Below are positions 9,427 through 64,000 of a stretch of 64,000 bases of DNA, piece by piece; position 1 is the first letter of the stretch, and each line of letters starts with the position of its first letter. Both the position numbers and the translations under genes were made by a program. The notes beneath the pieces are model-generated. The model was given only the letters and a program-made list of their open reading frames with translations, made no database searches and was not told the DNA's origin. Origin of the DNA: an uncultured Candidatus Saccharibacteria bacterium (lineage in GTDB: Bacteria; Patescibacteriota; SOKK01); assembly GCA_964518965.1 (NCBI GenBank), contig CAZFJP010000003.1, positions 25,508 to 89,507 on the forward strand, read 5' to 3'.

Positions 9427-10602
9427 ATGTATAAGAAACGTCTTTTCCTTGTTCTTCTGACTTCGCTTTTCTTGGTCAGTGTCCCTCTTGCTACTTTGGC
9501 AGCGACTTTCAGAACAGGCAATAATGTTACAGTTGGTAGAGATGAAGTTATTAATGGAGATTTGTATGTATCAGGAGGTTCCCTCAATATTGAGGGGTTT
9601 GTAAAGGGTGATGTCTTTGTAGCAGGGCAAACCATTGATGTTGACCATGAGGTTTCTGGAGACTTGTTTGCTGCAGGAACAAATGTTAACATTCGTAGTA
9701 CTATCTGGGATGATGTGAGAGTTTGTGGATCTAATGTTCAACTAGATGCTGGGGTTGGTGATGACATCTTTGCAGTAGGAGCAACAGTTGAGTGCACCGA
9801 AAAATCACTGATTTCGGGTAGTGCATTTTTATCTGGTGGAAATGTGAAAGTATTTGGTGATGTAAAGGGCGATTTAAATGTTTCCGCAACAGCGTTGACT
9901 ATTGAAGGAGTAATCAAGGGTAATGTTAAAGCAACTACCGATAAACTAGTTTTAGGGAAGAATGCTAAAATTGAAGGTGACTTGGAATATACTAGTAAAA
10001 ATGATCTAGAAAAAGCAGAGGGAGCTTTAGTTGTTGGAAAAACTACTCGTCATGAGTCAAAAACTAATGGTAAAATTGCTTGGCTGGGTGGGATTGCCTT
10101 GACAAGCGGTTATTTTCTTTGGAAGTTTGTTTGGTGGGTTGCCTCGTTATTGCTGCTTTTAGTTTTAATTTGGTTGATGCCTAATTTCAGTGTTAGTGTC
10201 GGTAACTATTTAAATAAAAATCCGTGGAAGAGTTTAGGATTTGGGTTACTTGCTCTCATTGTTATTCCAGTTATTGCGGTAATTTTCTGTGTTTTAATTC
10301 TCGGTTTGCCTCTCGGCATTATTATGCTCTTGGCTTATATTGTAATGATTATGATTGCTAAGGCACTGTTCGGTCTTTGGCTTGGTCGCAAGATTCTCTG
10401 GTTGTTTAATAAAAACAAGCGTGGTTATAAACCGCATTTTGTCTGGGCGGCAATCCTTGGTACTTTTGTAGCGACAATTTTATTCATGTTGCCGTTTATC
10501 GGCTGGTTAATCAAGTGGGTGGCGCTCTGGCTGATGTTCGGCGCGTTGATTATTACAACTAAGAATTTGATGAAGAGTTTTAAACGCAAAGGAACGTTAT
10601 AA
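9427..10602 (+). CDS. Membrane protein with a signal peptide, a bactofilin-like beta-helical repeat ectodomain and four C-terminal TM helices
   Basis: Signal peptide is present. Repeats follow a VxGDxxVxGxxxxIxG pattern (INGDLYVSGGSLNIEGFVKGDVFVAGQTIDVDHEVSGDLFAAG...). The C-terminus is hydrophobic. Confidence 0.45.
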   Translation: MYKKRLFLVLLTSLFLVSVPLATLAATFRTGNNVTVGRDEVINGDLYVSGGSLNIEGFVKGDVFVAGQTIDVDHEVSGDLFAAGTNVNIRSTIWDDVRVCGSNVQLDAGVGDDIFAVGATVECTEKSLISGSAFLSGGNVKVFGDVKGDLNVSATALTIEGVIKGNVKATTDKLVLGKNAKIEGDLEYTSKNDLEKAEGALVVGKTTRHESKTNGKIAWLGGIALTSGYFLWKFVWWVASLLLLLVLIWLMPNFSVSVGNYLNKNPWKSLGFGLLALIVIPVIAVIFCVLILGLPLGIIMLLAYIVMIMIAKALFGLWLGRKILWLFNKNKRGYKPHFVWAAILGTFVATILFMLPFIGWLIKWVALWLMFGALIITTKNLMKSFKRKGTL

Positions 10603-10613
10603 AACCTTATTAG

Positions 10614-10647
10614 AAAAGCCGCTTCTAAATCTGGGGGCGGCTTTTTA
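10614..10647 (+). terminator. Rho-independent terminator
   Basis: AAAGCCGC...GCGGCTTT hairpin plus TTT. Confidence 0.55.
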
Positions 10648-10702
10648 GTTGAAAAGTTCACCAACTCCTGCTACCCTAGAAATGTCTATTTAAAGCGGAA
10701 AT

Positions 10703-11551
10703 ATGCTCAAAGCTTTGAAAATCTTGTTGACTTTGTTGCTTCTTTTTATCATTGGAGCAGCTTTTGCAATTACCTGGATGATTTATTTCAAAGATTCGGG
10801 TAATCAGGGGGAGAGAGAGACTAAGTTTCCTGAAGTTCAGGAGGATAAGGGTGATTTTCGTTTTGCGGTTTGTGGTGATCCGCATAGTAACTGGAAGGTT
10901 TATAAAAAAGTTTTCCAAAGTGCTCAAAAGAGAAAAGTGAGCTTTTTGATTAATGTTGGTGATCTTACCAGAGTTGGTGCAGAATCAGAATTTTATGAAG
11001 GGAAACGATTAATGGCTGATTTTCCTTATAAAACATACTTGGTGATGGGTGGTCATGACATGACTGGGGAAGGGAGACGCTGGTTTCGGAAGTACTTTGG
11101 TAAGGATCATCAAAGTTTTAATCAGGGCAAAGCGCATTTCGTCGTTTTAAATAATGCCGATCAAAAAGAGGGGATAAGTAAAGATCAGTTGGATTGGTTG
11201 GAGAAAGATTTAGAAGAGAATAACCTGCCATTAAAGTTTGTTTTTGTTCATCAGCCCCTGGCATTTCCTTATGCTGATCCCGAAGAGATAGGTTATTTGA
11301 CAGAAAAATCCCAAGAGGCAGAACAGGATTTGGTGGAAATTCTGAAAAGGAATCACGTGAATGTTGTTTTTGCTGGTCATCTTCATTCTTATCTTACTTA
11401 TCAGTTTGGCGATATTTCTGCTATAATAACAGGGGGAGCGGGTGGACCAATCTACAGTATGCCCTTTTTAGCTGATACTCCCTACCACTATGTTTTAGTG
11501 ACAGTTAAAGGTACTGAGTATTATCCGGAGAAGATTGAAATTAATAACTAA
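10703..11551 (+). CDS. Membrane-anchored metallophosphoesterase (calcineurin-like)
   Basis: Motifs GDPH, NVGDLT, GGHD and a GHLH-like element. N-terminal TM helix. Confidence 0.65.
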   Translation: MLKALKILLTLLLLFIIGAAFAITWMIYFKDSGNQGERETKFPEVQEDKGDFRFAVCGDPHSNWKVYKKVFQSAQKRKVSFLINVGDLTRVGAESEFYEGKRLMADFPYKTYLVMGGHDMTGEGRRWFRKYFGKDHQSFNQGKAHFVVLNNADQKEGISKDQLDWLEKDLEENNLPLKFVFVHQPLAFPYADPEEIGYLTEKSQEAEQDLVEILKRNHVNVVFAGHLHSYLTYQFGDISAIITGGAGGPIYSMPFLADTPYHYVLVTVKGTEYYPEKIEINN

Positions 11552-55074: not shown

Positions 55075-56499
55075 TTAAGACGTATGTCCTTGACTAAACA
55101 GAATTGTCTTAATCGTGAGGAGGATAATTTTGATATCAAATAAAAGCGTCCAGTTCTCAATATAGTAAAGATCATATTTCACCCGTTCTTCAATAGAAGT
55201 GTCGCCGCGAAGACCGTTTACCTGTGCCCAACCGGTAATTCCGCCTTTAACGCGATGGCGGTAGGCATAGCGGGGAATTTCTCGGGAGAATTTCTTAACA
55301 AATCTTGGTTGTTCCGGACGAGGACCAACAATACTCATTTCTCCTTTAAGGACATTGAAAAGTTGCGGTAATTCATCAATGCTGAATTTGCGAATGATTT
55401 TACCGATTTTAGTAACACGCGGATCGTTTTTAGTGGTCCATTTTTTTAGTTTGTCGGCATCCGGACGCATTGAACGAAATTTATAAGCCCAAAATCTTTT
55501 TTCGTCACGTCCAATTCGTTCCTGTTTATAAAATATCGGTCCAAAGTCGCTTAGTTTAATAATAATTGCGGTCAGGATTAGTATTGGCGAAAGTAAAATT
55601 AAACTGATGGTAGAGAAAGTAAGATCAAAAATTCTTTTTGCTATCCGTCCCCAACCAAGAATAGTAGGTTTTTTTACTCCGTAAATGGGAATGCCGTCAA
55701 TATTGGTAATTAAGGAGTAACGAGCGAGAAGACGAGGGATATCGGGAATAAAGCGAAATTCAATATTGCGTTTGCGGCAGGTTTCGGCAAGGTTTAAAAT
55801 ACCTACTAGTTTCTTTGTTGCAGTTAGAAGAACAATATCGGGATGATATTTTTTAATAATTTCTTCCACTTTTTGTTTGGTTCCTAAATAGCGAAAGCCA
55901 TTCTCGGTGAAGAGTTTTTCATTTTCCCGCTCGCTTACAATACCAATCAATTCAAATCCGCCTGTCGTTTTCTTGGCAGTTAAGGTTTGGATAATTTTAA
56001 TTGTTTGTTTCCCGTTACCGACAATCAAAAGTTTCTTTGTCCCGACACCGTAACGGCGGAGCGCTTTGCGTACCGTTTTGACCCAGAATCTTCCCGTGAA
56101 GATAAGGATACAGCTTAGAATAAAAGCGTAAACAATAATTAAACGGGAGAAAGGCGGGTTTTCACTGAAAAAGAAGAAAAGAACAATCAGGGTAGTGCCG
56201 AAAGAAATTGCGCCGACTAGCTTGTAAAAACCGCCGGTACCTTCACTGATTTTCTCGCGATGATAAAGTTTCGCAAACCAGAAAACAATTATCCAAATTA
56301 AGGTAATTGTTGCGATATAGAGGAGGTAAGTTTTAAAATCAATCAATTCCGAAACGGTGCGAATTTCTATATTACTTCTAATGAAATAAGCAAGAATGAA
56401 TGAACCACTAATCGCGATGATATCAGAAATCAAAAAACAGGTTGCGAAGACAGCGTCTGTATCTAAAGTTTCTTTCACTTTTTTCCAAAATCTTTTCAT
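55075..56499 (-). CDS. Undecaprenyl-phosphate hexose-1-phosphate transferase (WbaP/WcaJ-type bacterial sugar transferase)
   Basis: Motifs KRIFDL..S...LLL.SP....TA..IKL.D.GP.FY.Q.R.G and DELPQLFNVLKGEMSIVGPRP. N-terminal TM block plus a C-terminal catalytic domain. Confidence 0.75.
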   Translation of the reverse strand: MKRFWKKVKETLDTDAVFATCFLISDIIAISGSFILAYFIRSNIEIRTVSELIDFKTYLLYIATITLIWIIVFWFAKLYHREKISEGTGGFYKLVGAISFGTTLIVLFFFFSENPPFSRLIIVYAFILSCILIFTGRFWVKTVRKALRRYGVGTKKLLIVGNGKQTIKIIQTLTAKKTTGGFELIGIVSERENEKLFTENGFRYLGTKQKVEEIIKKYHPDIVLLTATKKLVGILNLAETCRKRNIEFRFIPDIPRLLARYSLITNIDGIPIYGVKKPTILGWGRIAKRIFDLTFSTISLILLSPILILTAIIIKLSDFGPIFYKQERIGRDEKRFWAYKFRSMRPDADKLKKWTTKNDPRVTKIGKIIRKFSIDELPQLFNVLKGEMSIVGPRPEQPRFVKKFSREIPRYAYRHRVKGGITGWAQVNGLRGDTSIEERVKYDLYYIENWTLLFDIKIILLTIKTILFSQGHTS

Positions 56500-56626
56500 C
56501 TCTGAAGTTAGTTAATATAGATTATACCAAAAAATAGAAGTCCTAAAATTAAGCGGCTCCTTTTGGATTTTGCATTTTTCGTTTTGAATTTATTTTGTCC
56601 ATCTAATCTGTAAGCCGAGTTCTGTT

Positions 56627-56732
56627 CCCCGCCTAAGTTTCATCGTTGAACTAAATCAAGACTCACTAGAATTGTCAGAACTACTGAACTGATAATGTCT
56701 TGATGGATGTCAATGATGAAATTTAGGCGGGG
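56627..56732. repeat. Palindrome of the 'TTTCATCATTGA...AATCAAGAC' family (copy C), immediately 3' of the RNase P RNA
   Basis: ccccgcctaagtttcatcgttgaactaaatcaagac ... gtcttgatggatgtcaatgatgaaatttaggcgggg. Confidence 0.6.
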
Positions 56733-57092
56733 CGATAATCATCTCTCTAGTCCCCGACTCGCATCGGGGATCAGGCGACCAACCCGTCCCATCCGCTTCT
56801 GGCGGAGAGGCCTACTTGGTCTTACACCAGGCAGGGTTTGGCTCTTCTAAGTATCACTGCTTAGAACTGGGAGCTTTTACCTCACTCTTTTCACCCTTAC
56901 CTTAATACCGGAATGGTATAAGGCGGTTTAAGTTTCTGTGCCACTTTCCCTTGTCGTTTTCTTTTATCTAGAAGGCAAAGAAAACAACCGGTTTGGATTA
57001 CAAACTGCCTTTTTCCCAATAATGAGGGGATATGGTGCTCGGACTTTCCTCCCTGTGCCATAGGACGCAGGGCGATTATCCGATTAGATGGA
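56733..57092 (-). ncRNA. rnpB: RNase P RNA (bacterial type A-like)
   Basis: Minus strand carries the P3 hairpin CCCTGCGTCCTATGGCACAGGG, then GAGGAAAGTCCGAGCACC (P4 5' strand), then ...GGTAAGGGTGAAAAGAGTGAGGTAAAAGCTC (P10.1-P12 consensus-like). GATAATC pairs with GATTATC as a P2 candidate. An upstream promoter is TTGACA-17 nt-TAAAAT (57100-57128 rc). Both ends are approximate. Confidence 0.7.
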
Positions 57093-57443
57093 CATTCTGA
57101 TTTTAGCTTAAAATGATGTTATTGTCAAGAAGATACCATATTATTGAAAAAATGTCAATTCTCAAGGCAATTGGGAGGGACTGGAGGTTTTTGCTGTATC
57201 TCTACATTTTAGGGTTTATCTGCTAAAATAAACTTGCAATGACAAGTAGAAGATATGAAGATTGGGAGAAAAAGGTTTTGCTTAGAGTAAGGGCTCGTGA
57301 GAAGAAAAAGCAAATGATGCCTGTTTCTGGCAAGGGAGTTTTTCAGTTACAAAAATTAATTGGGCGATCTAAATTTAAAAAGAATAATTCTAAATAAGGA
57401 TTTTTAGGGTTTTGGGTTTTGCGTTTTGAGTTGAGTTTTGAGA

Positions 57444-57494
57444 CGGGGATTGGCCCAGTTTCCGCCAGGGGCGGATGCGCCTCTGGCGCACACC
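57444..57494 (+). pseudogene. tRNA-Pro 5' fragment (nt 1-17) plus double-hairpin module (copy 1)
   Basis: CGGGGATTGGCCCAGTT, then TCCGCC-agg-GGCGGA, then TGCGCC-tct-GGCGCA. Confidence 0.55.
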
Positions 57495-57530
57495 TTAGTT
57501 TATCTACATAATTTTTAAAGAAGGGACTAA

Positions 57531-57791
57531 ATGTTTTTTGTCTATTTTTTGAGAAGTAGAAAGAATCGGAAGATTTATACTGGAATGACAGCAAAGATAC
57601 CTTGTGAGAGATTAAAGGAACATAATTTAGGATCGAACAAATGGACGAGAAAAAATGGACCATTCAGTTTGCTCTATTATGAGAAATATTTCTGCAAAGC
57701 TGATGCTATGCAAAGAGAAAGATTTTATAAATCGGGGTTTGGTAGAAAAATCAGAGATTCAATTATTGTTGCTTTAACAAGATTTCAATGA
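57531..57791 (+). CDS. Stand-alone GIY-YIG nuclease family protein (UPF0213/YazA-like)
   Basis: FFVYFLRS.KNRKIYTGMT......RLKEHNLG...WTRKNGP..LLYYEKF......A..RE...K motif pattern in an 86 aa protein. Confidence 0.6.
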   Translation: MFFVYFLRSRKNRKIYTGMTAKIPCERLKEHNLGSNKWTRKNGPFSLLYYEKYFCKADAMQRERFYKSGFGRKIRDSIIVALTRFQ

Positions 57792-57876
57792 GAATAGTTA
57801 GTATTTTAGAGAGCAAGCCTGATTTCTCCGCCAGGGGCGGATGCGAAATTTGGTTTTTCTTTTATAAACTATTTTC

Positions 57877-57993
57877 CGGGGATTGGCCCAGTTTCCGCCA
57901 GGGGCGGATGCGCCTCTGGCGCACACCTGGCGTATCTCTGGTGCACAGGATGTGTTTTAAGATTTACTCTTTCTTTTATCAAGTTATTTTTTC
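57877..57993 (+). pseudogene. tRNA-Pro 5' fragment (nt 1-17) plus double-hairpin module (copy 2), immediately upstream of the intact tRNA-Pro(GGG)
   Basis: Identical 47-mer CGGGGATTGGCCCAGTTTCCGCCAGGGGCGGATGCGCCTCTGGCGCACACCT. A third partial copy of hairpin 1 lies at 57827-57845. Confidence 0.55.
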
Positions 57994-58071
57994 CGGGGAT
58001 TGGCCCAGTTGGTCTAAGGCGCACGCATGGGGTGCGTGAGATCGTGAGTTCGAATCTCACATCCCCGACCA
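57994..58071 (+). tRNA. tRNA-Pro(GGG), CCA encoded
   Basis: CGGGGAT pairs with ATCCCCG. Anticodon loop ATGGGGT. T-arm GTGAGTTCGAATCTCAC. The D-stem has one mismatch. Confidence 0.7.
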
Positions 58072-58087
58072 TTAAAGAATTAAAAGG

Positions 58088-59080
58088 ATGCCTAAGTTTT
58101 ATGAGACAATTGGGGTTGCGATCATTCTAACGCTTCTTATGGGAGGAGGTTATTTTGCATATCACGGACAAGGAGATACTCGTGATAGTTTTGGAGTTGA
58201 GAATTATTCTGAATCAGGTCAAGCTTCTGATTTGGATGTGAATGAGAAACTTTTTTATCAAGCGGTTGCAAGTGGCACTTCTGATGAGCAGATAGCAGTT
58301 TTGCAAAAGGATCTTAATCGTTTGAAAAAGCACGAACAAAGGAATTATTGGCTGATTGTTAAGTTAGGTAAGCAATTTCCGGAGAGTTTTAAGCAAGGAT
58401 ACGAGCTTGAGGATGTTTTTAGTTTTGGTAGCTTGTTACCGGCGTTAAATACCGAAGGAAGTGTAAGTGAGAATATTGCAAAGGTGTTAGGGGAAGATCT
58501 TTCGCAAAAGCAGGGGTTGTTTTGGGAGGATAAAATTGTTTTGCTGAACAGGGTTTATCTGCCTTTTAAGAAGGAGAAGTTGCTTAAACGTTTGGATAGT
58601 CCCACTGAGTTTGATCGTAATTTTCTTGAAGCGCATCCGGATTTTTTTTGGGATTGTCTTACGGAGTTAAACGGTTGGCTGAAGGGGACGGAGGTAGTTT
58701 TGGCTTTTAAGGATGAGGCGCAAAAAAAATCCCGCTTTGAATTGCGGAATTTGTTGCAACGTTTGTATTATCTGGAAGTTTATTTGCGTTATCTGAAAGC
58801 AGAAGAGCCGGATTATTGGCAGAAGTTGGTTTCGGAAAAAGGGGTGGTGTTTATGCTTCAACGTTTGTTTTATCTTGCTAATCAAACTGCTGAAGCGGGT
58901 CGTAAATCCAAGATTTTCAAGGAATATCAATTGGCTTTTAAGCGAGCAACGGATTGGAAGAATCGGGATGTTGTGAATCAATTGGTGAGTGAAGCGGGGA
59001 TTGGTAAGTTTAAGACTTTGCTGCTTTCTGATGCAAAGTTGCGGGAGAAGGGGATTGTGATTGAGTTGAGAGATTTTTAA
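58088..59080 (+). CDS. Hypothetical protein with N-terminal TM anchor
   Basis: 330 aa ORF lying between two tRNA-Pro loci. No recognisable motifs. Confidence 0.4.
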   Translation: MPKFYETIGVAIILTLLMGGGYFAYHGQGDTRDSFGVENYSESGQASDLDVNEKLFYQAVASGTSDEQIAVLQKDLNRLKKHEQRNYWLIVKLGKQFPESFKQGYELEDVFSFGSLLPALNTEGSVSENIAKVLGEDLSQKQGLFWEDKIVLLNRVYLPFKKEKLLKRLDSPTEFDRNFLEAHPDFFWDCLTELNGWLKGTEVVLAFKDEAQKKSRFELRNLLQRLYYLEVYLRYLKAEEPDYWQKLVSEKGVVFMLQRLFYLANQTAEAGRKSKIFKEYQLAFKRATDWKNRDVVNQLVSEAGIGKFKTLLLSDAKLREKGIVIELRDF

Positions 59081-59095
59081 TTTTTAATTTGTTTC

Positions 59096-59285
59096 CGGGG
59101 ACTGGTCTAATGGCTAAGGCACACGATTCGGTTTGCCTGCCGCCAAATTATTCTCGGGGATTGGCCTAGTGGATTAAGGCGCACGCTTCGGGTGCGTGAG
59201 ATCATCGGTTCGAATCCGATATCCCCGACCATGGCTCTGGTAGGCGGGGTTCGTGAGATTCTGGGTTTGAGTCCCGGGTCCCCGA
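59096..59285 (+). other. Split tRNA-Pro(CGG). The 5' half (positions 1-36, 59096-59131) and the 3' half (positions 37-73, 59249-59285) are separated by a 117 nt insert that itself contains an intact tRNA-Pro(CGG).
   Basis: The halves reconstitute a canonical cloverleaf: acceptor CGGGGAC/GTCCCCG, D-stem GTCT/AGGC, anticodon stem CACGA/TCGTG with loop TTCGG|GT, T-arm CTGGGTTTGAGTCCCGG. No CCA is encoded (CTA follows). Confidence 0.55.
59155..59231 (+). tRNA. tRNA-Pro(CGG), CCA encoded (nested inside the split tRNA-Pro)
   Basis: CGGGGAT pairs with ATCCCCG. D-stem GCCT/AGGC. Anticodon loop TTCGGGT. T-arm ATCGGTTCGAATCCGAT. Confidence 0.8.
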
Positions 59286-59472
59286 CTAAGGACAGTTTTT
59301 CTTTTTGAGAGTGTTTCAGGTTTTTCTTTAATATAGTATGGGTTTTGGAATTAGGGGATTGTTTGAAGTGGTGGTAAGGTAAAAGGTAGACGATATTGCT
59401 GGGTTTTTTAATTGGTATATTCTAGAGTTGGCTATATTTTGGGGCTAATTGACGGCTTATTAATAAAAAGTT

Positions 59473-62400
59473 ATGGCCCAAAAATTTTTACACAATGCAA
59501 ATAACGATTCACTTCCTGAATTAGCTGATAATCTTGTTTCGGAAACAAAGAAAATGCTTCATGAAACCAAAACGGAGGAAGATTTAAGAATTGGTTTTGA
59601 AAAACTTTTGGAACCGATAAGGTCCGAATTAAATCTAAATTCAACCCCAAAATACGAAAAATCTGTTTATAGTGGTCGTTCAGATGCAGTACACGGACAA
59701 GTAATAATTGAATATGAACCGCCAAAATCATTTTCATCAAAAAAGAATATAAATCATGCTTACGAGCAATTGGTAAATTACTTGTCCGATGAAGCAAAAG
59801 AAACAAAATTAACTCAATTAGTGGGAATAGGTTTTGATGGCGAGCAGATTTTCTTTGTCCAATATCAAGACAAAAACAACAAAAAGATAGACAAGGCAAA
59901 ATTTTTTATTCGTGGACCTTACCATTTTACTCCTGAAAGTGCCAGAACTTTTTTAATTCATCTACGTGCTCTGTCTCGGCTTCCGCTTAGCCCTGAAAAT
60001 TTGGCACAAAAGTTTGGTCCCCAAAGCGAACTTGCACAAAAAATGGTTTCCTCTCTTGCCAATGCTTTGGAATATTGGGTGGATCAAACACATATTCGCA
60101 CATTTTTTAATGAGTGGAAAAGATTATTTGGTATTGTTTATGGAGAACAATTTACTAGTGGATATCAAGAAAAAGAGGCAGAAAAGCTTTCAAAACTTTA
60201 CAAAGTAGGGAAAGAAACTGAATTTCAAGAGCTTTTATTTTCCATCCATACTTACTTTGCTTTTTTAATGAAACTTATTGCTGCCGAAATTTTGACTTTA
60301 AGAGAAACATCTTTTAGTTCATCTCTTGCTTCAGAACTAGCTCATATTTCGGAGGATGAACTTAAAAGCAATCTTTCCGATATAGAAAACGGTGGAATTT
60401 ATGCCCAAAAAGGAATTACTAATTTTTTGGAAGGTGATTTTTTCCGCTGGTATCTTGATGCTTTTGAATCACCGGAACTAAAAGACGCGATTAGAGAAAT
60501 TGCCAGATGTCTTTCTGAATTTGAACCGGCAACCAGCACTTTAGATCCGGTTTCAACTCGCGATCTCCTCAAAAAACTTTATCAGTATTTAGTCCCGCAG
60601 GAAGTCCGCCATCGCCTTGGCGAATATTATACACCCGATTGGTTGGCGGAATTACTACTAAATGAAGTTGGCTACGATGGCAACACCCTTAAAAGATTTT
60701 TGGACCCGGCTTGCGGCTCCGGAACATTTTTAGTTTTGGCAATTCAGCGCGCAATAAAACATGGCAGAGAAAAAGAAAAGATCTCTGATCTTGAAATCGC
60801 AAAAAGAATCGTCGCCAATATCTGGGGATTTGATTTAAATCCTTTGGCAGTTATTGCCGCGCGAACCAATTATCTTTTTGCTTTGGGAGATTTGGTAAAT
60901 GAACTGGAACGAGTGGAAATCCCAATTTACCTTTGCGATTCAGTTTTATGGCCAGAACAAATAGGGGGACAATTAATCCTCGGTTTAGAGGGAGATGTCA
61001 GAAAAATTAAAACTTCAGTTAAAGAGTTTTTCGTTCCAAGAATTTGGACCGATGAGTTTAAGTGGCGAATGGGCGAAGCCGCAGAAATTATTGAAAGAGA
61101 TGTTAAACTTCAAGTTGATTCAGAAATAGCATTAAAACATTTTAAAGATGTTGGCTTGGCTTTTCGTGGTTGCGAGAATGAGGTTAAAAATTTTTATAGT
61201 CAAATTTTGGACTTGGAAAAAGAAAGAAAAAACGGTATTTGGGCAAGATTTCTTAAAAATTTCTCTGCGCCGATAGTAGCTGGAAGAGAAAAATATGATT
61301 TTGTCGTTGGCAACCCTCCGTGGATTATGTGGCAATATTTGTCAATAGAATACAGAAAGGCTACACAAAATTTATGGGAGAATTATGGTCTTACAAAGAT
61401 CGGGCAAGTACGAAATGTCCTGATTAGGGGTAGAAGAGATTTTTCAATGCTTTTTGTTTATGCTTCCGCTGACTATTATCTTAAAGATGGAGCAAAATTA
61501 GGATTTTTAATAACCCAAGAGGTTTTTAAATCCAAAGGGGCGGGTGAGGGATTTAGGAGATTTCAGCTTGGCGAGGGTAAATATCTTAAAGTATTAAAAG
61601 CCCACGATTTAGTTTCCATTCAGCCATTTGAGGGCGCAACAAATAAAACAGCGGCAATAATTCTTAAAAAGGGAGAAAAAACAAAGTATCCTGTGCCTTA
61701 TATTGTTTGGTCAAAGAAACAAACCATGGGGAAAATCGCTACAGATAAACTTTTAGAAGAAGTAGTTCCTATGCTTTCTAAAAAACGACTCCTTGCTAGA
61801 CCAATTGGTTCAGAAACAGGAGCCTGGCAAACACAAATACAGGGTATAGTTATTAATATTGAGGGACAAAATTATTATAAAGCACATGCTGGAGCTTATA
61901 TTTCTCCTTATGGGATTTTTTGGCTAAAAGTAAAAAGTATACTATCAGATAATAACTTATTAATTGAAAATTTTACTGAAAAAGTAAAAACAAAAATTCC
62001 AAAAACAGAAGCAGTGATTGAGCAGGATTTAGTTTACCCAGCGATACGTGGCTCAGATATTCAAAAGTGGAAGGTATTACCTCAAATCTATGTCTTAATC
62101 ACTCACCCTGCATCACAGACCCCGTATATAGAAGAAGAGATGAAAAAGCAATGGCCGAGAACTTATAGTTATCTGATTAACTTCAAAAACATTTTATTGC
62201 AAAGAGCACTTTATAAACACTTTCATGAGAAATCAGACAATTCTTTTTATGGACAACGTCTTTTTGGAAATTATACTTTTTCAAAATATAAAGTTGTGTG
62301 GAAGCGAATGGCTGAAGACTTAATTTCCGCAGTTGTTTCTCAACATAAAACTTTATTCGGTTATAAAATAATAATACCTGTTGAAACGGTTACTTTCTTT

Positions 62401-62715
62401 TCAACCGACAACGAATTTGAAGCTCACTATCTCTGTGCTATTATCAATTCAACACCAGTCCGTGATTTTATTAAATCTTTCTCTTCTGCTGGTCGAGGTT
62501 TTGGCACGCCTTCGGTAATGGAGCATGTCAGCATTCCAAAATTTGACCCTAAAAATCCGCTTCACCTGAAACTTGCTGAAATTTCTAAAAAATGCCACCA
62601 ATTCAAAGCCGAAGGCAAAGAAAAAGAGATTGAAAAATTAGAAAAAGAAAACGACGAGTTAGTTAAAGAACTTTTTGCTAAAAAAGCGAAGAAAATTGCC
62701 TTATTCACTCATTAA
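59473..62715 (+). CDS. Large gamma-class N6-adenine DNA methyltransferase protein (Type IIG/IIL- or PglX-like): N-terminal domain with a possible degenerate PD-(D/E)xK, central methyltransferase, C-terminal target-recognition-like region
   Basis: Motif X GEYYTPDWLAELLL. Motif I FLDPACGSGTFLV. Motif IV VVGNPPWIMWQY. N-terminal GRSDAVHGQVIIEYEPPK is D-x9-E-x-E-like. 1080 aa. Confidence 0.65.
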   Translation: MAQKFLHNANNDSLPELADNLVSETKKMLHETKTEEDLRIGFEKLLEPIRSELNLNSTPKYEKSVYSGRSDAVHGQVIIEYEPPKSFSSKKNINHAYEQLVNYLSDEAKETKLTQLVGIGFDGEQIFFVQYQDKNNKKIDKAKFFIRGPYHFTPESARTFLIHLRALSRLPLSPENLAQKFGPQSELAQKMVSSLANALEYWVDQTHIRTFFNEWKRLFGIVYGEQFTSGYQEKEAEKLSKLYKVGKETEFQELLFSIHTYFAFLMKLIAAEILTLRETSFSSSLASELAHISEDELKSNLSDIENGGIYAQKGITNFLEGDFFRWYLDAFESPELKDAIREIARCLSEFEPATSTLDPVSTRDLLKKLYQYLVPQEVRHRLGEYYTPDWLAELLLNEVGYDGNTLKRFLDPACGSGTFLVLAIQRAIKHGREKEKISDLEIAKRIVANIWGFDLNPLAVIAARTNYLFALGDLVNELERVEIPIYLCDSVLWPEQIGGQLILGLEGDVRKIKTSVKEFFVPRIWTDEFKWRMGEAAEIIERDVKLQVDSEIALKHFKDVGLAFRGCENEVKNFYSQILDLEKERKNGIWARFLKNFSAPIVAGREKYDFVVGNPPWIMWQYLSIEYRKATQNLWENYGLTKIGQVRNVLIRGRRDFSMLFVYASADYYLKDGAKLGFLITQEVFKSKGAGEGFRRFQLGEGKYLKVLKAHDLVSIQPFEGATNKTAAIILKKGEKTKYPVPYIVWSKKQTMGKIATDKLLEEVVPMLSKKRLLARPIGSETGAWQTQIQGIVINIEGQNYYKAHAGAYISPYGIFWLKVKSILSDNNLLIENFTEKVKTKIPKTEAVIEQDLVYPAIRGSDIQKWKVLPQIYVLITHPASQTPYIEEEMKKQWPRTYSYLINFKNILLQRALYKHFHEKSDNSFYGQRLFGNYTFSKYKVVWKRMAEDLISAVVSQHKTLFGYKIIIPVETVTFFSTDNEFEAHYLCAIINSTPVRDFIKSFSSAGRGFGTPSVMEHVSIPKFDPKNPLHLKLAEISKKCHQFKAEGKEKEIEKLEKENDELVKELFAKKAKKIALFTH

Positions 62716-62833
62716 TCTTGTGATGAAGAAAGAAAGGCGAGGGAATTATTAGAAGGGGCAAAAAGAGCAGTAGAGATTGCTATTGAGAAAAACGAAGAAA
62801 AAGCGCTGGACTATATTTTGGCAAAAAATAACT

Positions 62834-63586
62834 ATGAACTCATTTAAAGATATTGCTTATCAAATTTTAAAAGAGGCGGGAAAACCTTTACATAGTAAAG
62901 AGATTACTAAAATTGCTTTAAAACGAGGTTGGCTTAAGACCAGTGGTAAAACTCCAGAAGCGACAATGAATGCCCAATTAATTGTGGATATAAACACTAG
63001 AAAAGGAGAATCGCGTTTTATAAAAACTGGCCCTTCTATTTTTGCTTTAAACCCAAATAAAAGTGCGGTTGTAAAACCAGAAACGCTTAAGGTTTATCTT
63101 CCAAACCTTAAAATCGGCGGAAAACAAAAAGGAGATATCGCTGAGGCAAGAATAGCAGAAATTATTTTGCTTTATAGTAAAGAACCCGGTCTTTCTTGCT
63201 ATAAACCCCTTTCTGACGATGAGGGAATAGATTTAATTGTTAAAACAAAAGGAGAATTTAAAACAATGTTTTTACAGATTAAAAGTCGGTTTGGTATAGA
63301 ACCAAATTTGGTTTATACAGCGACAGTTAAAAGAAAAACTTTAATCGATAATTATTCAATGGCCTTGGTTTTTTGCTATTTTGATTTATCAGATGGGGAT
63401 TTATGGGATTATCTTTGGTTTGTGCCGGCTCCTGATTTTATTAAAATGGCAAATCAACTTCAAGGTGGAAAAATGCTGGGCTTCGTGGCTGGAAGAAAAA
63501 AGAAAGAGTCAAATAAATGGGACCGGTATTTGATTGACAAAAGAGATTTGGCAAGAGTTATTGTGGGACAAATGAGAAGGATTTGA
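62834..63586 (+). CDS. Mrr-like restriction endonuclease: N-terminal winged-helix (HARE-HTH/Mrr_N-like) plus a C-terminal PD-(D/E)xK-type domain with a D...QxK variant
   Basis: N-terminus FKDIAYQILKEAGKPLHSKEITKIALKRGW. C-terminus ...DDEGIDLIVK...FLQIKSR. The start is chosen at the internal Met; the ORF track starts at 62777. Confidence 0.5.
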   Translation: MNSFKDIAYQILKEAGKPLHSKEITKIALKRGWLKTSGKTPEATMNAQLIVDINTRKGESRFIKTGPSIFALNPNKSAVVKPETLKVYLPNLKIGGKQKGDIAEARIAEIILLYSKEPGLSCYKPLSDDEGIDLIVKTKGEFKTMFLQIKSRFGIEPNLVYTATVKRKTLIDNYSMALVFCYFDLSDGDLWDYLWFVPAPDFIKMANQLQGGKMLGFVAGRKKKESNKWDRYLIDKRDLARVIVGQMRRI

Positions 63587-63756
63587 AATAATTACGGAGT
63601 AATAAAAAACGATTGAATTTAATCCTAAAATTAAAAAAGCTAATTAAAGAAATTAAAGAATTAACGAATTAACGGATTAAAAGATTGACTAATTAACTAA
63701 TTAAAAGATTAATGAATTACGAATTGAAAGACTGTAATATGCTAAAATTAATTTCT

Positions 63757-64000
63757 ATGAATAGAAAAATTTTGATTTTAGGGGTTGGTTTTTTGGTTTT
63801 GGGTCTTCTTTTTTATTTTTTAAGACAGAATTTCGTTCAAAAAAATTCCCAAGAGAAACAAATCACAGGAATAGCAAATCCGGCTTCTGTTTATTGTGAA
63901 AAAGAAGGAGGGAAATTAGAAATTAGAAAAGATAAAGATGGCAATGAAAAAGGATTTTGTATTTTTGAGGATGGTTCGGAGTGTGAGGAATGGGATTTTT
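63757..64000 (+). CDS. DUF333-like small secreted/lipoprotein (3'-partial, runs off the window)
   Basis: Signal/TM segment, then NPASVYCEKEGGKLEIRKDKDGNEKGFCIFEDGSECEEWDF, which is the DUF333 pattern. Confidence 0.45.
   Translation, partial: MNRKILILGVGFLVLGLLFYFLRQNFVQKNSQEKQITGIANPASVYCEKEGGKLEIRKDKDGNEKGFCIFEDGSECEEWDF

Follow-up and report, generated by a model that had tools for sequence, protein, structure and literature searches.

A predicted TspDTI-type restriction enzyme gene and an adjacent HARE-HTH nuclease-fold gene in a Saccharibacteria genome

Do two adjacent genes of restriction type make up one defence system, or do they stand next to each other as independent functions? The question is raised by a locus in a 64,000-nucleotide stretch of DNA from an uncultured Candidatus Saccharibacteria bacterium (assembly GCA_964518965.1, contig CAZFJP010000003.1, positions 25,508 to 89,507 of the forward strand; this whole stretch is hereafter the window), where a gene for a large methyltransferase-containing protein is followed, on the same strand and after 118 nucleotides, by a gene for a small nuclease-like protein. 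An initial annotation had put the two forward as a candidate module in which the small protein might cut DNA on behalf of the large one. Both open reading frames (ORFs) lie where that annotation had placed them and both are restriction-type genes, with one correction: the small ORF was listed from a TTG at 62777, and because every homologue begins MNSFKDIA, its true start is the ATG at 62834.

59473-62715, plus strand: large gene, 1080 amino acids (ORF list), predicted single-chain restriction endonuclease-methyltransferase of the TspDTI subfamily (Type IIS/IIC/IIG)
62834-63586, plus strand: small gene, 250 amino acids, HARE-HTH plus PD-(D/E)XK protein (stop at 63586)

The restriction locus consists of these two genes and nothing more, since its flanks are a tRNA-Pro gene and a DUF333 protein gene. 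We favour the reading, with a probability of roughly 0.6, that it holds two independent restriction functions side by side. The pair is very probably not a dedicated module, and to list the locus among new two-component defence systems would be a mistake.

The distribution of the two genes carries this conclusion. In a scan of one genome per species, 78 loci held a relative of the small protein at 40–71% identity, with Patescibacteria, Omnitrophota, Legionella, other Gammaproteobacteria and Chloroflexota among their owners. At none of the 78 did tblastn with the large protein find a full-length TspDTI-type gene within 10 kb of the small gene; the search returned just two weak matches, both to the methyltransferase core. 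Conversely, among 21 metagenome loci carrying relatives of the large protein, the small gene was present in one alone (L080), a copy 98% identical and of the same lineage, and it was absent downstream of large-gene relatives at 60–79% identity on contigs that extend that far. No recurrent neighbour of any kind accompanied the large-protein relatives, as would be expected of a self-sufficient single-chain enzyme.

The large protein and its nuclease motif

Over nearly its whole length the large protein aligns with TspDTI (BLASTP, 36% identity, 54% positives, 608 bits; query 18–1069 of 1080, subject 13–1085 of 1112), for which the sequence given in Additional file 2 of PMC3384240 was transcribed. 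It also matches the PADLOC model REase_MTase_IIG PDLC03630, a profile that may include enzymes known by prediction alone, at E=1.3e-268 (892 bits, residues 20–1076 on profile positions 10–1089 of 1100). TspDTI itself is a protein of 1112 amino acids with the domain order R-Mh-Mc-S, and the purified recombinant single polypeptide is active (PMC3384240). The corresponding parts of the window protein are as follows.

59560-59877, plus strand: N-terminal PD-(D/E)XK-type nuclease core, residues ~30-135, with E35, E62, D71, E80 and E82 (D-EXE)
59920-60552, plus strand: all-helical linker, residues ~150-360, the 'Mh' domain of TspDTI-type enzymes (AlphaFold secondary structure)
60553-61662, plus strand: gamma-class N6-adenine methyltransferase domain (Pfam N6_Mtase, Eco57I)
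60619-60636, plus strand: motif X, GEYYTP, residues 383-388
60703-60729, plus strand: motif I, DPACGSGTF, residues 411-419
61312-61323, plus strand: motif IV, NPPW, residues 614-617
61663-62715, plus strand: target-recognition region (TaqI_C-like) and charged C-terminal tail, aligning to the target-recognition domain (TRD) of M.BseCI

The point on which the dependence of the large protein turns is its N-terminal nuclease motif, which the initial annotation had read as a degenerate D-x9-EYE. The spacing is in fact x8 (D71-x8-E80-Y-E82), and in the alignment D71, E80 and E82 are in register with D66, E75 and E77 of TspDTI. These form what has been called an "atypical D-EXE" motif, as in BamHI, which is also present in the active enzymes Tth111II and TsoI, other homologues having the usual D-EXK (PMC3384240). 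A search with the N-terminal 360 residues of the window protein against 1.8 billion representative proteins yielded 942 relatives, most of the non-truncated ones about 1050–1130 amino acids long. Of 79 diverse full-length relatives, 100% keep D71 and 96% keep E80, while position 82 (59716-59718 in the window) is K in 46 and E in 33; because this one residue alternates, D-EXK and D-EXE forms coexist within a single family. Compared in this way, the EYE motif looks like the normal motif of an active enzyme subfamily and not like a degenerate one, and since D-EXE is shared with active TspDTI-type enzymes, the large protein would need no trans-acting nuclease. AlphaFold predicts for residues 1–360 (mean confidence, pLDDT, 84) an alpha-beta-beta-beta-alpha-beta-beta core followed by the helical domain.

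The rest of the chain bears out most of what had been annotated. The methyltransferase motifs occur in the gamma-class order X-I-IV, as had been proposed, and the spacer between motifs I and IV, also singled out at that time, is indeed long (~195 amino acids) because it contains an insert of ~100 amino acids (residues ~496–595) common to the whole family. TspDTI has the S-adenosylmethionine motif DPACGSG and the catalytic motif NPPW, and the subfamily table gives both (PMC3384240). Pfam matches to the large protein comprise N6_Mtase, Eco57I, a borderline MmeI_Mtase and a weak TaqI_C (E=0.0097). The description as a Type IIG-like protein in which an N-terminal domain, a gamma-class N6-adenine methyltransferase and a TRD are fused is upheld. 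Single-sequence searches of the PDB with either the large or the small protein gave nothing useful; a profile of the large-protein family matched the methyltransferases of CamA, M.BseCI, BsaXI, PglX and DrdV. Among close relatives the methyltransferase core is most conserved (0.87 identity) and the insert and TRD least (0.47–0.62, with 0.51–0.57 in the TRD region), the helical linker averaging 79%. Such variability of insert and TRD is what would be expected of enzymes with changing specificity.

The large protein adds a member to a known family, and by homology it is most probably a self-sufficient TspDTI-type enzyme; a suitable annotation for the gene is TspDTI-type Type IIG enzyme, with what looks like a working-type nuclease motif. 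Elsewhere, large-gene homologues are split by frameshifts or stops into two to five ORFs (L095 10001-13222, L096 2069-5246, L098 4-1667), and these are decaying copies of restriction enzyme genes.

The small protein and the genes it follows

The small protein divides into two domains, the second with a putative active site.

62834-63058, plus strand: HARE-HTH winged-helix domain, residues 1-75 (Pfam PF05066)
63119-63583, plus strand: PD-(D/E)XK nuclease domain, residues 96-250 (conserved residues, Foldseek)
63143-63145: predicted catalytic residue E104
63230-63232: predicted catalytic residue D133
63275-63283: predicted catalytic residues Q148-x-K150 (here Q148-I-K150)

The HARE-HTH match is strong (78.7 bits against a cutoff of 25.9, E 4e-22). 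For the second domain the best family is PDDEXK_5 (PF11645), which the window protein matches at 20.7 bits, below the 26.1 cutoff. An alignment of 90 sequences takes in two subfamilies about 40% identical to one another: all 90 relatives match both HARE-HTH and PDDEXK_5 (the latter at E<=0.1 in 90 of 90, best 9e-7), and E104, D128, D133, Q148 and K150 are invariant at identities down to 40%, giving an E...D...QxK site. PD-QxK is the motif of the Mrr catalytic domain (PMC11037411). Mrr_cat (PF04471) is itself matched weakly by 53 of the 90 relatives (best 1.4e-3, below threshold) and not by the window protein at E<=0.1, and Mrr_N is matched by none of the 90 in Pfam; no PADLOC or NCBIfam model matches the small protein. 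Thus the winged helix and the PD-QxK nuclease of the initial annotation stand, on Pfam, AlphaFold and Foldseek evidence, while Mrr_N was not detected.

In the AlphaFold model (pLDDT 86), a winged domain of three helices at the N-terminus is joined to a C-terminal alpha/beta domain by a disordered linker (residues 78–88). With Foldseek, the N-terminal domain matched the delta subunit of RNA polymerase (8x6g_E) and the C-terminal domain matched known PD-(D/E)XK nucleases at E values from 1e-5 to 1e-3, namely the SPARDA nuclease domain (1e-5), I-Ssp6803I (2e-5, target TM score 0.69), Hjc, EcoRV and NhoI, the last a methyl-dependent enzyme. Since the predicted fold finds such matches and the active-site residues are invariant, the small ORF appears to encode a genuine nuclease-fold protein whose active site is conserved. 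Of the two findings that the initial annotation had named as refuting it, one was obtained, the large protein having a complete single-polypeptide Type IIG match in TspDTI, and the other was not, the small ORF having a predicted nuclease fold.

Where the small gene sits is the more informative property of its family. At 48 of the 56 loci with a full-length small gene, its upstream neighbour is encoded on the same strand, and the two often overlap or are no more than 13 nucleotides apart. In Pfam terms, the gene immediately upstream is ResIII in 10 loci, an XRE-type helix-turn-helix (HTH) protein in six, Methylase_S in four, an HsdR-type ATPase in three, N6_N4_Mtase in three, Eco57I and GmrSD_N in two each, and AlwI, AbiEii and Fic once each; the second gene upstream is N6_N4_Mtase (seven), N6_Mtase (six), ResIII (six), Eco57I (four) or HsdR (three). 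Independent metagenome contigs, with precomputed annotation, give the orders Mod-Res-small, with a 2-nucleotide gap, and HsdR-HsdM-HsdS-small, in which genes overlap. Of the 57 loci that have at least 3 kb of upstream sequence, 36 carry a methyltransferase or helicase gene on the same strand within 6 kb upstream, and 72 of 314 nearby upstream genes are of this kind versus 6 of 326 distant genes at the same loci, an enrichment of about 12-fold; these counts use one combined label for methyltransferases and superfamily 2 (SF2) helicases, assigned with local iterative profiles in which the beta and gamma classes are partly merged.

About a third of the small-gene loci have no restriction gene nearby. 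At five Legionella loci (L027, L028, L031, L036 and L048, at ~9560-10760 in each) the small-gene homologue is accompanied by a divergently transcribed XRE-type HTH gene of ~100 amino acids, which resembles the controller gene of a toxic nuclease. The family keeps 60–70% identity across distant phyla and varied contexts. No homologue was found in the plasmid or phage collections, and IMG/VR held only one close homologue, on a contig whose gene order is that of ordinary metagenome contigs of related samples.

The small family is conserved and mobile, and it takes the 3'-terminal place in restriction operons regardless of their type. It is this strong directional link between a very conserved nuclease family, whose members number in the hundreds and have Patescibacteria, Omnitrophota and Legionella among their hosts, and restriction operons of several types that alone merits follow-up here.

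Two further arrangements were seen at small-gene loci. After a Type III Mod-Res pair, a 2088 amino acid ORF without Pfam match lies directly 3' of the small-gene homologue (L107 8264-14530, L108 8173-14439, L109 1621-7887). Elsewhere small-gene homologues stand beside a recurring pair composed of a PLD-nuclease/SNF2-helicase and a Type IIG-like methyltransferase of ~1150–1250 amino acids (L023 666-8615, L060 3093-9997, L111 481-7166), which resembles the BREX-related systems of PMC12839542.

Surroundings and left edge of the locus

The genes and junctions that frame the locus are listed below, together with the spans of three other contigs that precede their large-gene copies and do not match the window.

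57994-58071: tRNA-Pro(ggg), the second tRNA-Pro upstream
59155-59231, plus strand: tRNA-Pro(cgg) (ARAGORN and Rfam), left flank, 241 nucleotides 5' of the large gene and outside the system
from 63757: DUF333 protein gene, the first gene 3' of the small gene
L001, 1-498: unmatched left flank
L080, 1-319: unmatched left flank
L099, 1-2335: unmatched left flank

Further upstream lie tRNAs, RNase P RNA and glycosyltransferase genes. As had been noted originally, the neighbourhood holds no BREX accessory genes (PglZ, BrxC or others), its members being the tRNAs, an uncharacterized ORF and the DUF333 gene. The suggestion that the tRNA-Pro side is a spot for mobile DNA is likewise borne out. Copies of the large gene on contigs of other samples match the window only from nucleotide 59506 (codon 12), at 98.8% nucleotide identity in L001 and L080 and 93% in L099, and upstream of this point the left flank takes three different forms: the window has tRNA-Pro, L001 and L080 have a small methyltransferase-like ORF, and L099 has an Obg-type GTPase with DUF3800. 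Because similarity stops at 59506 and the flanks differ, the left edge of the locus is a recombination breakpoint, with tRNA-Pro(cgg) marking a variable junction. The L001 match runs on through the small gene to at least 63905, so that the right flank is common as far as that contig reaches. In base composition the locus does not stand out as foreign.

Several other features of the flanks were recorded. An exact 52-nucleotide direct repeat (57444-57495 and 57877-57928), made up of the first 17 nucleotides of tRNA-Pro and two GC-rich hairpins, flanks an 86 amino acid GIY-YIG ORF (57531-57791) just 5' of the intact tRNA-Pro(ggg), and a third copy of one of the hairpins lies at 57827-57845; the repeat could have been left behind by a mobile element with tRNA-Pro as its target. 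A 330 amino acid ORF (58088-59080, plus strand), which lies between the two tRNA-Pro genes, has no Pfam, NCBIfam or PADLOC match. At 63644-63707, in the stretch that separates the small gene from the DUF333 gene, there are five overlapping AT-rich tandem repeat copies with an 8-nucleotide period (ATTAAAGA / ATTAACGA). The RNase P RNA (bacterial class A, 56595-57091, minus strand, 182 bits) spans 497 nucleotides versus 367 positions in the model, which implies sizeable insertions.

Explanations weighed and known systems compared

If two independent functions share the locus, each can be sketched. By analogy with TspDTI, the large enzyme would recognize a short asymmetric site through its C-terminal TRD within one polypeptide, would N6-methylate an adenine at that site through its DPACGSG and NPPW motifs, and would cut unmodified DNA ~10 bp away with its N-terminal D-EXE nuclease; both the nature of the site and the distance we infer from the relative. 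The small protein would be a Type IV-like nuclease that attacks foreign-modified DNA, a second layer of defence and not the cutting subunit of its neighbour. Such a role is suggested because no methyltransferase partner is fixed in the small family and the DNA-binding domain is not diversifying, and it agrees with the published computational prediction that HARE-HTH nuclease fusions tell modified DNA apart; the same lack of a partner and a reader domain near-constant across phyla make a classical sequence-specific Type II role unlikely. Its target is probably not N6-methyladenine as such, since the partner systems all make this base, with many specificities. Modification dependence on the part of the small protein is held tentatively, at somewhat less than even odds. 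In E. coli, mrr stands beside hsd, and the arrangement of the small gene would resemble that. Also considered was a classical Type II arrangement in which the small protein would be the endonuclease, partnered by the neighbouring methyltransferase; it was rejected, as the methyltransferases vary in family and type while the small protein is nearly constant.

Several points weigh against two independent functions. First, the large and small genes are probably co-transcribed, because no terminator-like site was seen between them in a promoter and terminator scan, itself uninformative, where the promoter signal was at background. Second, the tight and often overlapping coupling of the small family to upstream restriction genes fits a functional accessory equally well. 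Third, in the delta subunit of RNA polymerase the HARE-HTH binds protein, and a reading of DNA modification by this domain is therefore not assured. Fourth, one result on the favourable side, that no C5-cytosine methyltransferase signature (PCQxFS plus ENV) occurs in 1031 ORFs around small-gene homologues (L002-L079), 53 of which have the amino-methyltransferase motif IV, (D/N/S)PP(Y/F/W), came from a crude regular expression. Finally, the best PDB fold match for the N-terminal domain of the large protein was DrdV, at a weak E=0.08, so that structural support for a nuclease fold there appears weak and the case rests on homology; and the D-EXE of TspDTI was assigned bioinformatically, activity having been measured for the whole polypeptide (PMC3384240).

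The main rival, which we judge unlikely, is that the small protein does not act independently and is a generic auxiliary or back-up effector coupled to whichever restriction system lies upstream, for example by degrading DNA that its partner has nicked or cut, or by switching on when the partner is inhibited. Tight operon coupling keeps this explanation alive: the small gene is usually the last gene on its strand, its start often overlaps the stop of Res, HsdS or HsdR, and restriction genes are enriched upstream to the extent given above. In addition, recent comparative work lists HARE-HTH nuclease fusions as 'backup effectors' of BREX-type and Dnd systems. However, the partners come from unrelated families (Type I, Type III, Type IIG, AlwI, GmrSD and AbiE), which makes a common physical interface unlikely, and the third of loci without a nearby restriction gene, as well as the Legionella copies that pair only with a small XRE regulator, do not fit. 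Whether the HARE-HTH/PD-QxK family as a whole is a universal 'tail gene' that works with any preceding system (Type I, III or IIG) is doubtful; in that role it might act as a common second-stage nuclease or as a fail-safe for when the partner is blocked, and, if true, this would be a new type-independent accessory layer of restriction-modification.

We regard as far less probable the minimal two-gene restriction-modification system, in which the large protein, with a dead nuclease, would provide methylation and specificity alone and the small Mrr-like protein would be its dedicated trans-acting cutter. This would account for two adjacent same-strand genes 118 nucleotides apart with no terminator between them, for the glutamate that replaces the canonical lysine in the motif of the large protein, and for the intact nuclease site of the small one. 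It founders on the presence of D-EXE in active TspDTI, Tth111II and TsoI and the family-wide retention of D71 and E80, on large-protein relatives 60–79% identical that have the same motif and no small gene, on the 78 loci at which small-protein relatives never adjoin a TspDTI-type gene, and on the tendency of small genes to follow complete Type I or III systems that have nucleases of their own.

Two other roles for the small gene are less likely than that of an accessory. We give little credence to a selfish, homing-endonuclease-like element that inserts 3' of restriction operons: the gene has no intron or intein context (Rfam found no intron in 56400-64000) and is free-standing at every locus examined, phage and plasmid collections essentially lack it and viral contigs seldom carry it, and its borders show no repeated target sequence, even though its closest sequence and fold family, PDDEXK_5 / I-Ssp6803I, is that of a homing endonuclease and the 60–70% identity across distant phyla and varied contexts would suit such an element. 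Nor is the small protein at all likely to be mainly a regulator of upstream genes that binds DNA or RNA polymerase and uses its nuclease-like domain for oligomerization, although HARE-HTH also occurs in the RNA polymerase delta subunit and the gene shares operons with restriction genes: invariant E104, D133, Q148 and K150 in 90 sequences argue for a working active site, and known controller proteins are encoded upstream of the genes that they control, not last in the operon.

Two independent functions side by side, then, remain our preferred explanation, and each has its own nearest relatives among known systems. The large protein is most like the TspDTI/Tth111II/TthHB27I/TsoI subfamily (PMC3384240), with which it shares a single polypeptide of ~1100 amino acids, the order R-Mh-Mc-S, D-x8-E-x-E, DPACGSG and NPPW; it differs in coming from a low-GC genome and not from Thermus, and its TRD has diverged. 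The Type IIL enzymes MmeI and DrdV and the BREX protein PglX have a comparable succession of N-terminal domain, helical domain, gamma-class N6-adenine methyltransferase and TRD, but the sequence match to them is confined to the methyltransferase core (MmeI in the PDB, E=0.18). Identity as a BREX protein was rejected: PglX models reach 44.7 bits (~45) versus NCBIfam cutoffs of at least 400 (400 for BREX-2), and the BREX accessory genes are missing.

The small protein resembles E. coli Mrr and other winged-helix Type IV enzymes (PMC11037411) in combining a winged-helix reader with PD-QxK, in having no cognate methyltransferase and in lying beside restriction genes, but its reader is a HARE-HTH with an extra helix, Mrr_cat matches are sub-threshold and Mrr_N is undetected. 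I-Ssp6803I and archaeal Hjc are the best fold matches of its nuclease domain (target TM score 0.6–0.7), PDDEXK_5 being the best Pfam family; unlike them, it has no intron context, has an added HARE-HTH, and carries Q in place of the second acidic motif residue.

The class to which the small protein belongs has already been described computationally. As far as the accounts of their work in PMC4738411, PMC10853773 and PMC12839542 go, Aravind, Iyer and co-workers (Cell Cycle 2012) described fusions of HARE-HTH with a restriction-endonuclease fold and predicted that these discriminate modified DNA and sit 3' of Dnd, BREX and restriction-modification genes for DNA modification. The two-domain architecture and the position directly 3' of DNA-modification genes are, in these accounts, the same as those found here. 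The literature searched contained no experimental test of any member of the small family, and a test of one would show whether HARE-HTH, which is shared with human ASXL proteins, reads modified DNA. Whereas the published fusions, so far as these accounts describe them, cover restriction-modification, Dnd and BREX contexts, our counts concern one conserved family of 250 amino acids that follows Type I, Type III and Type IIG operons.

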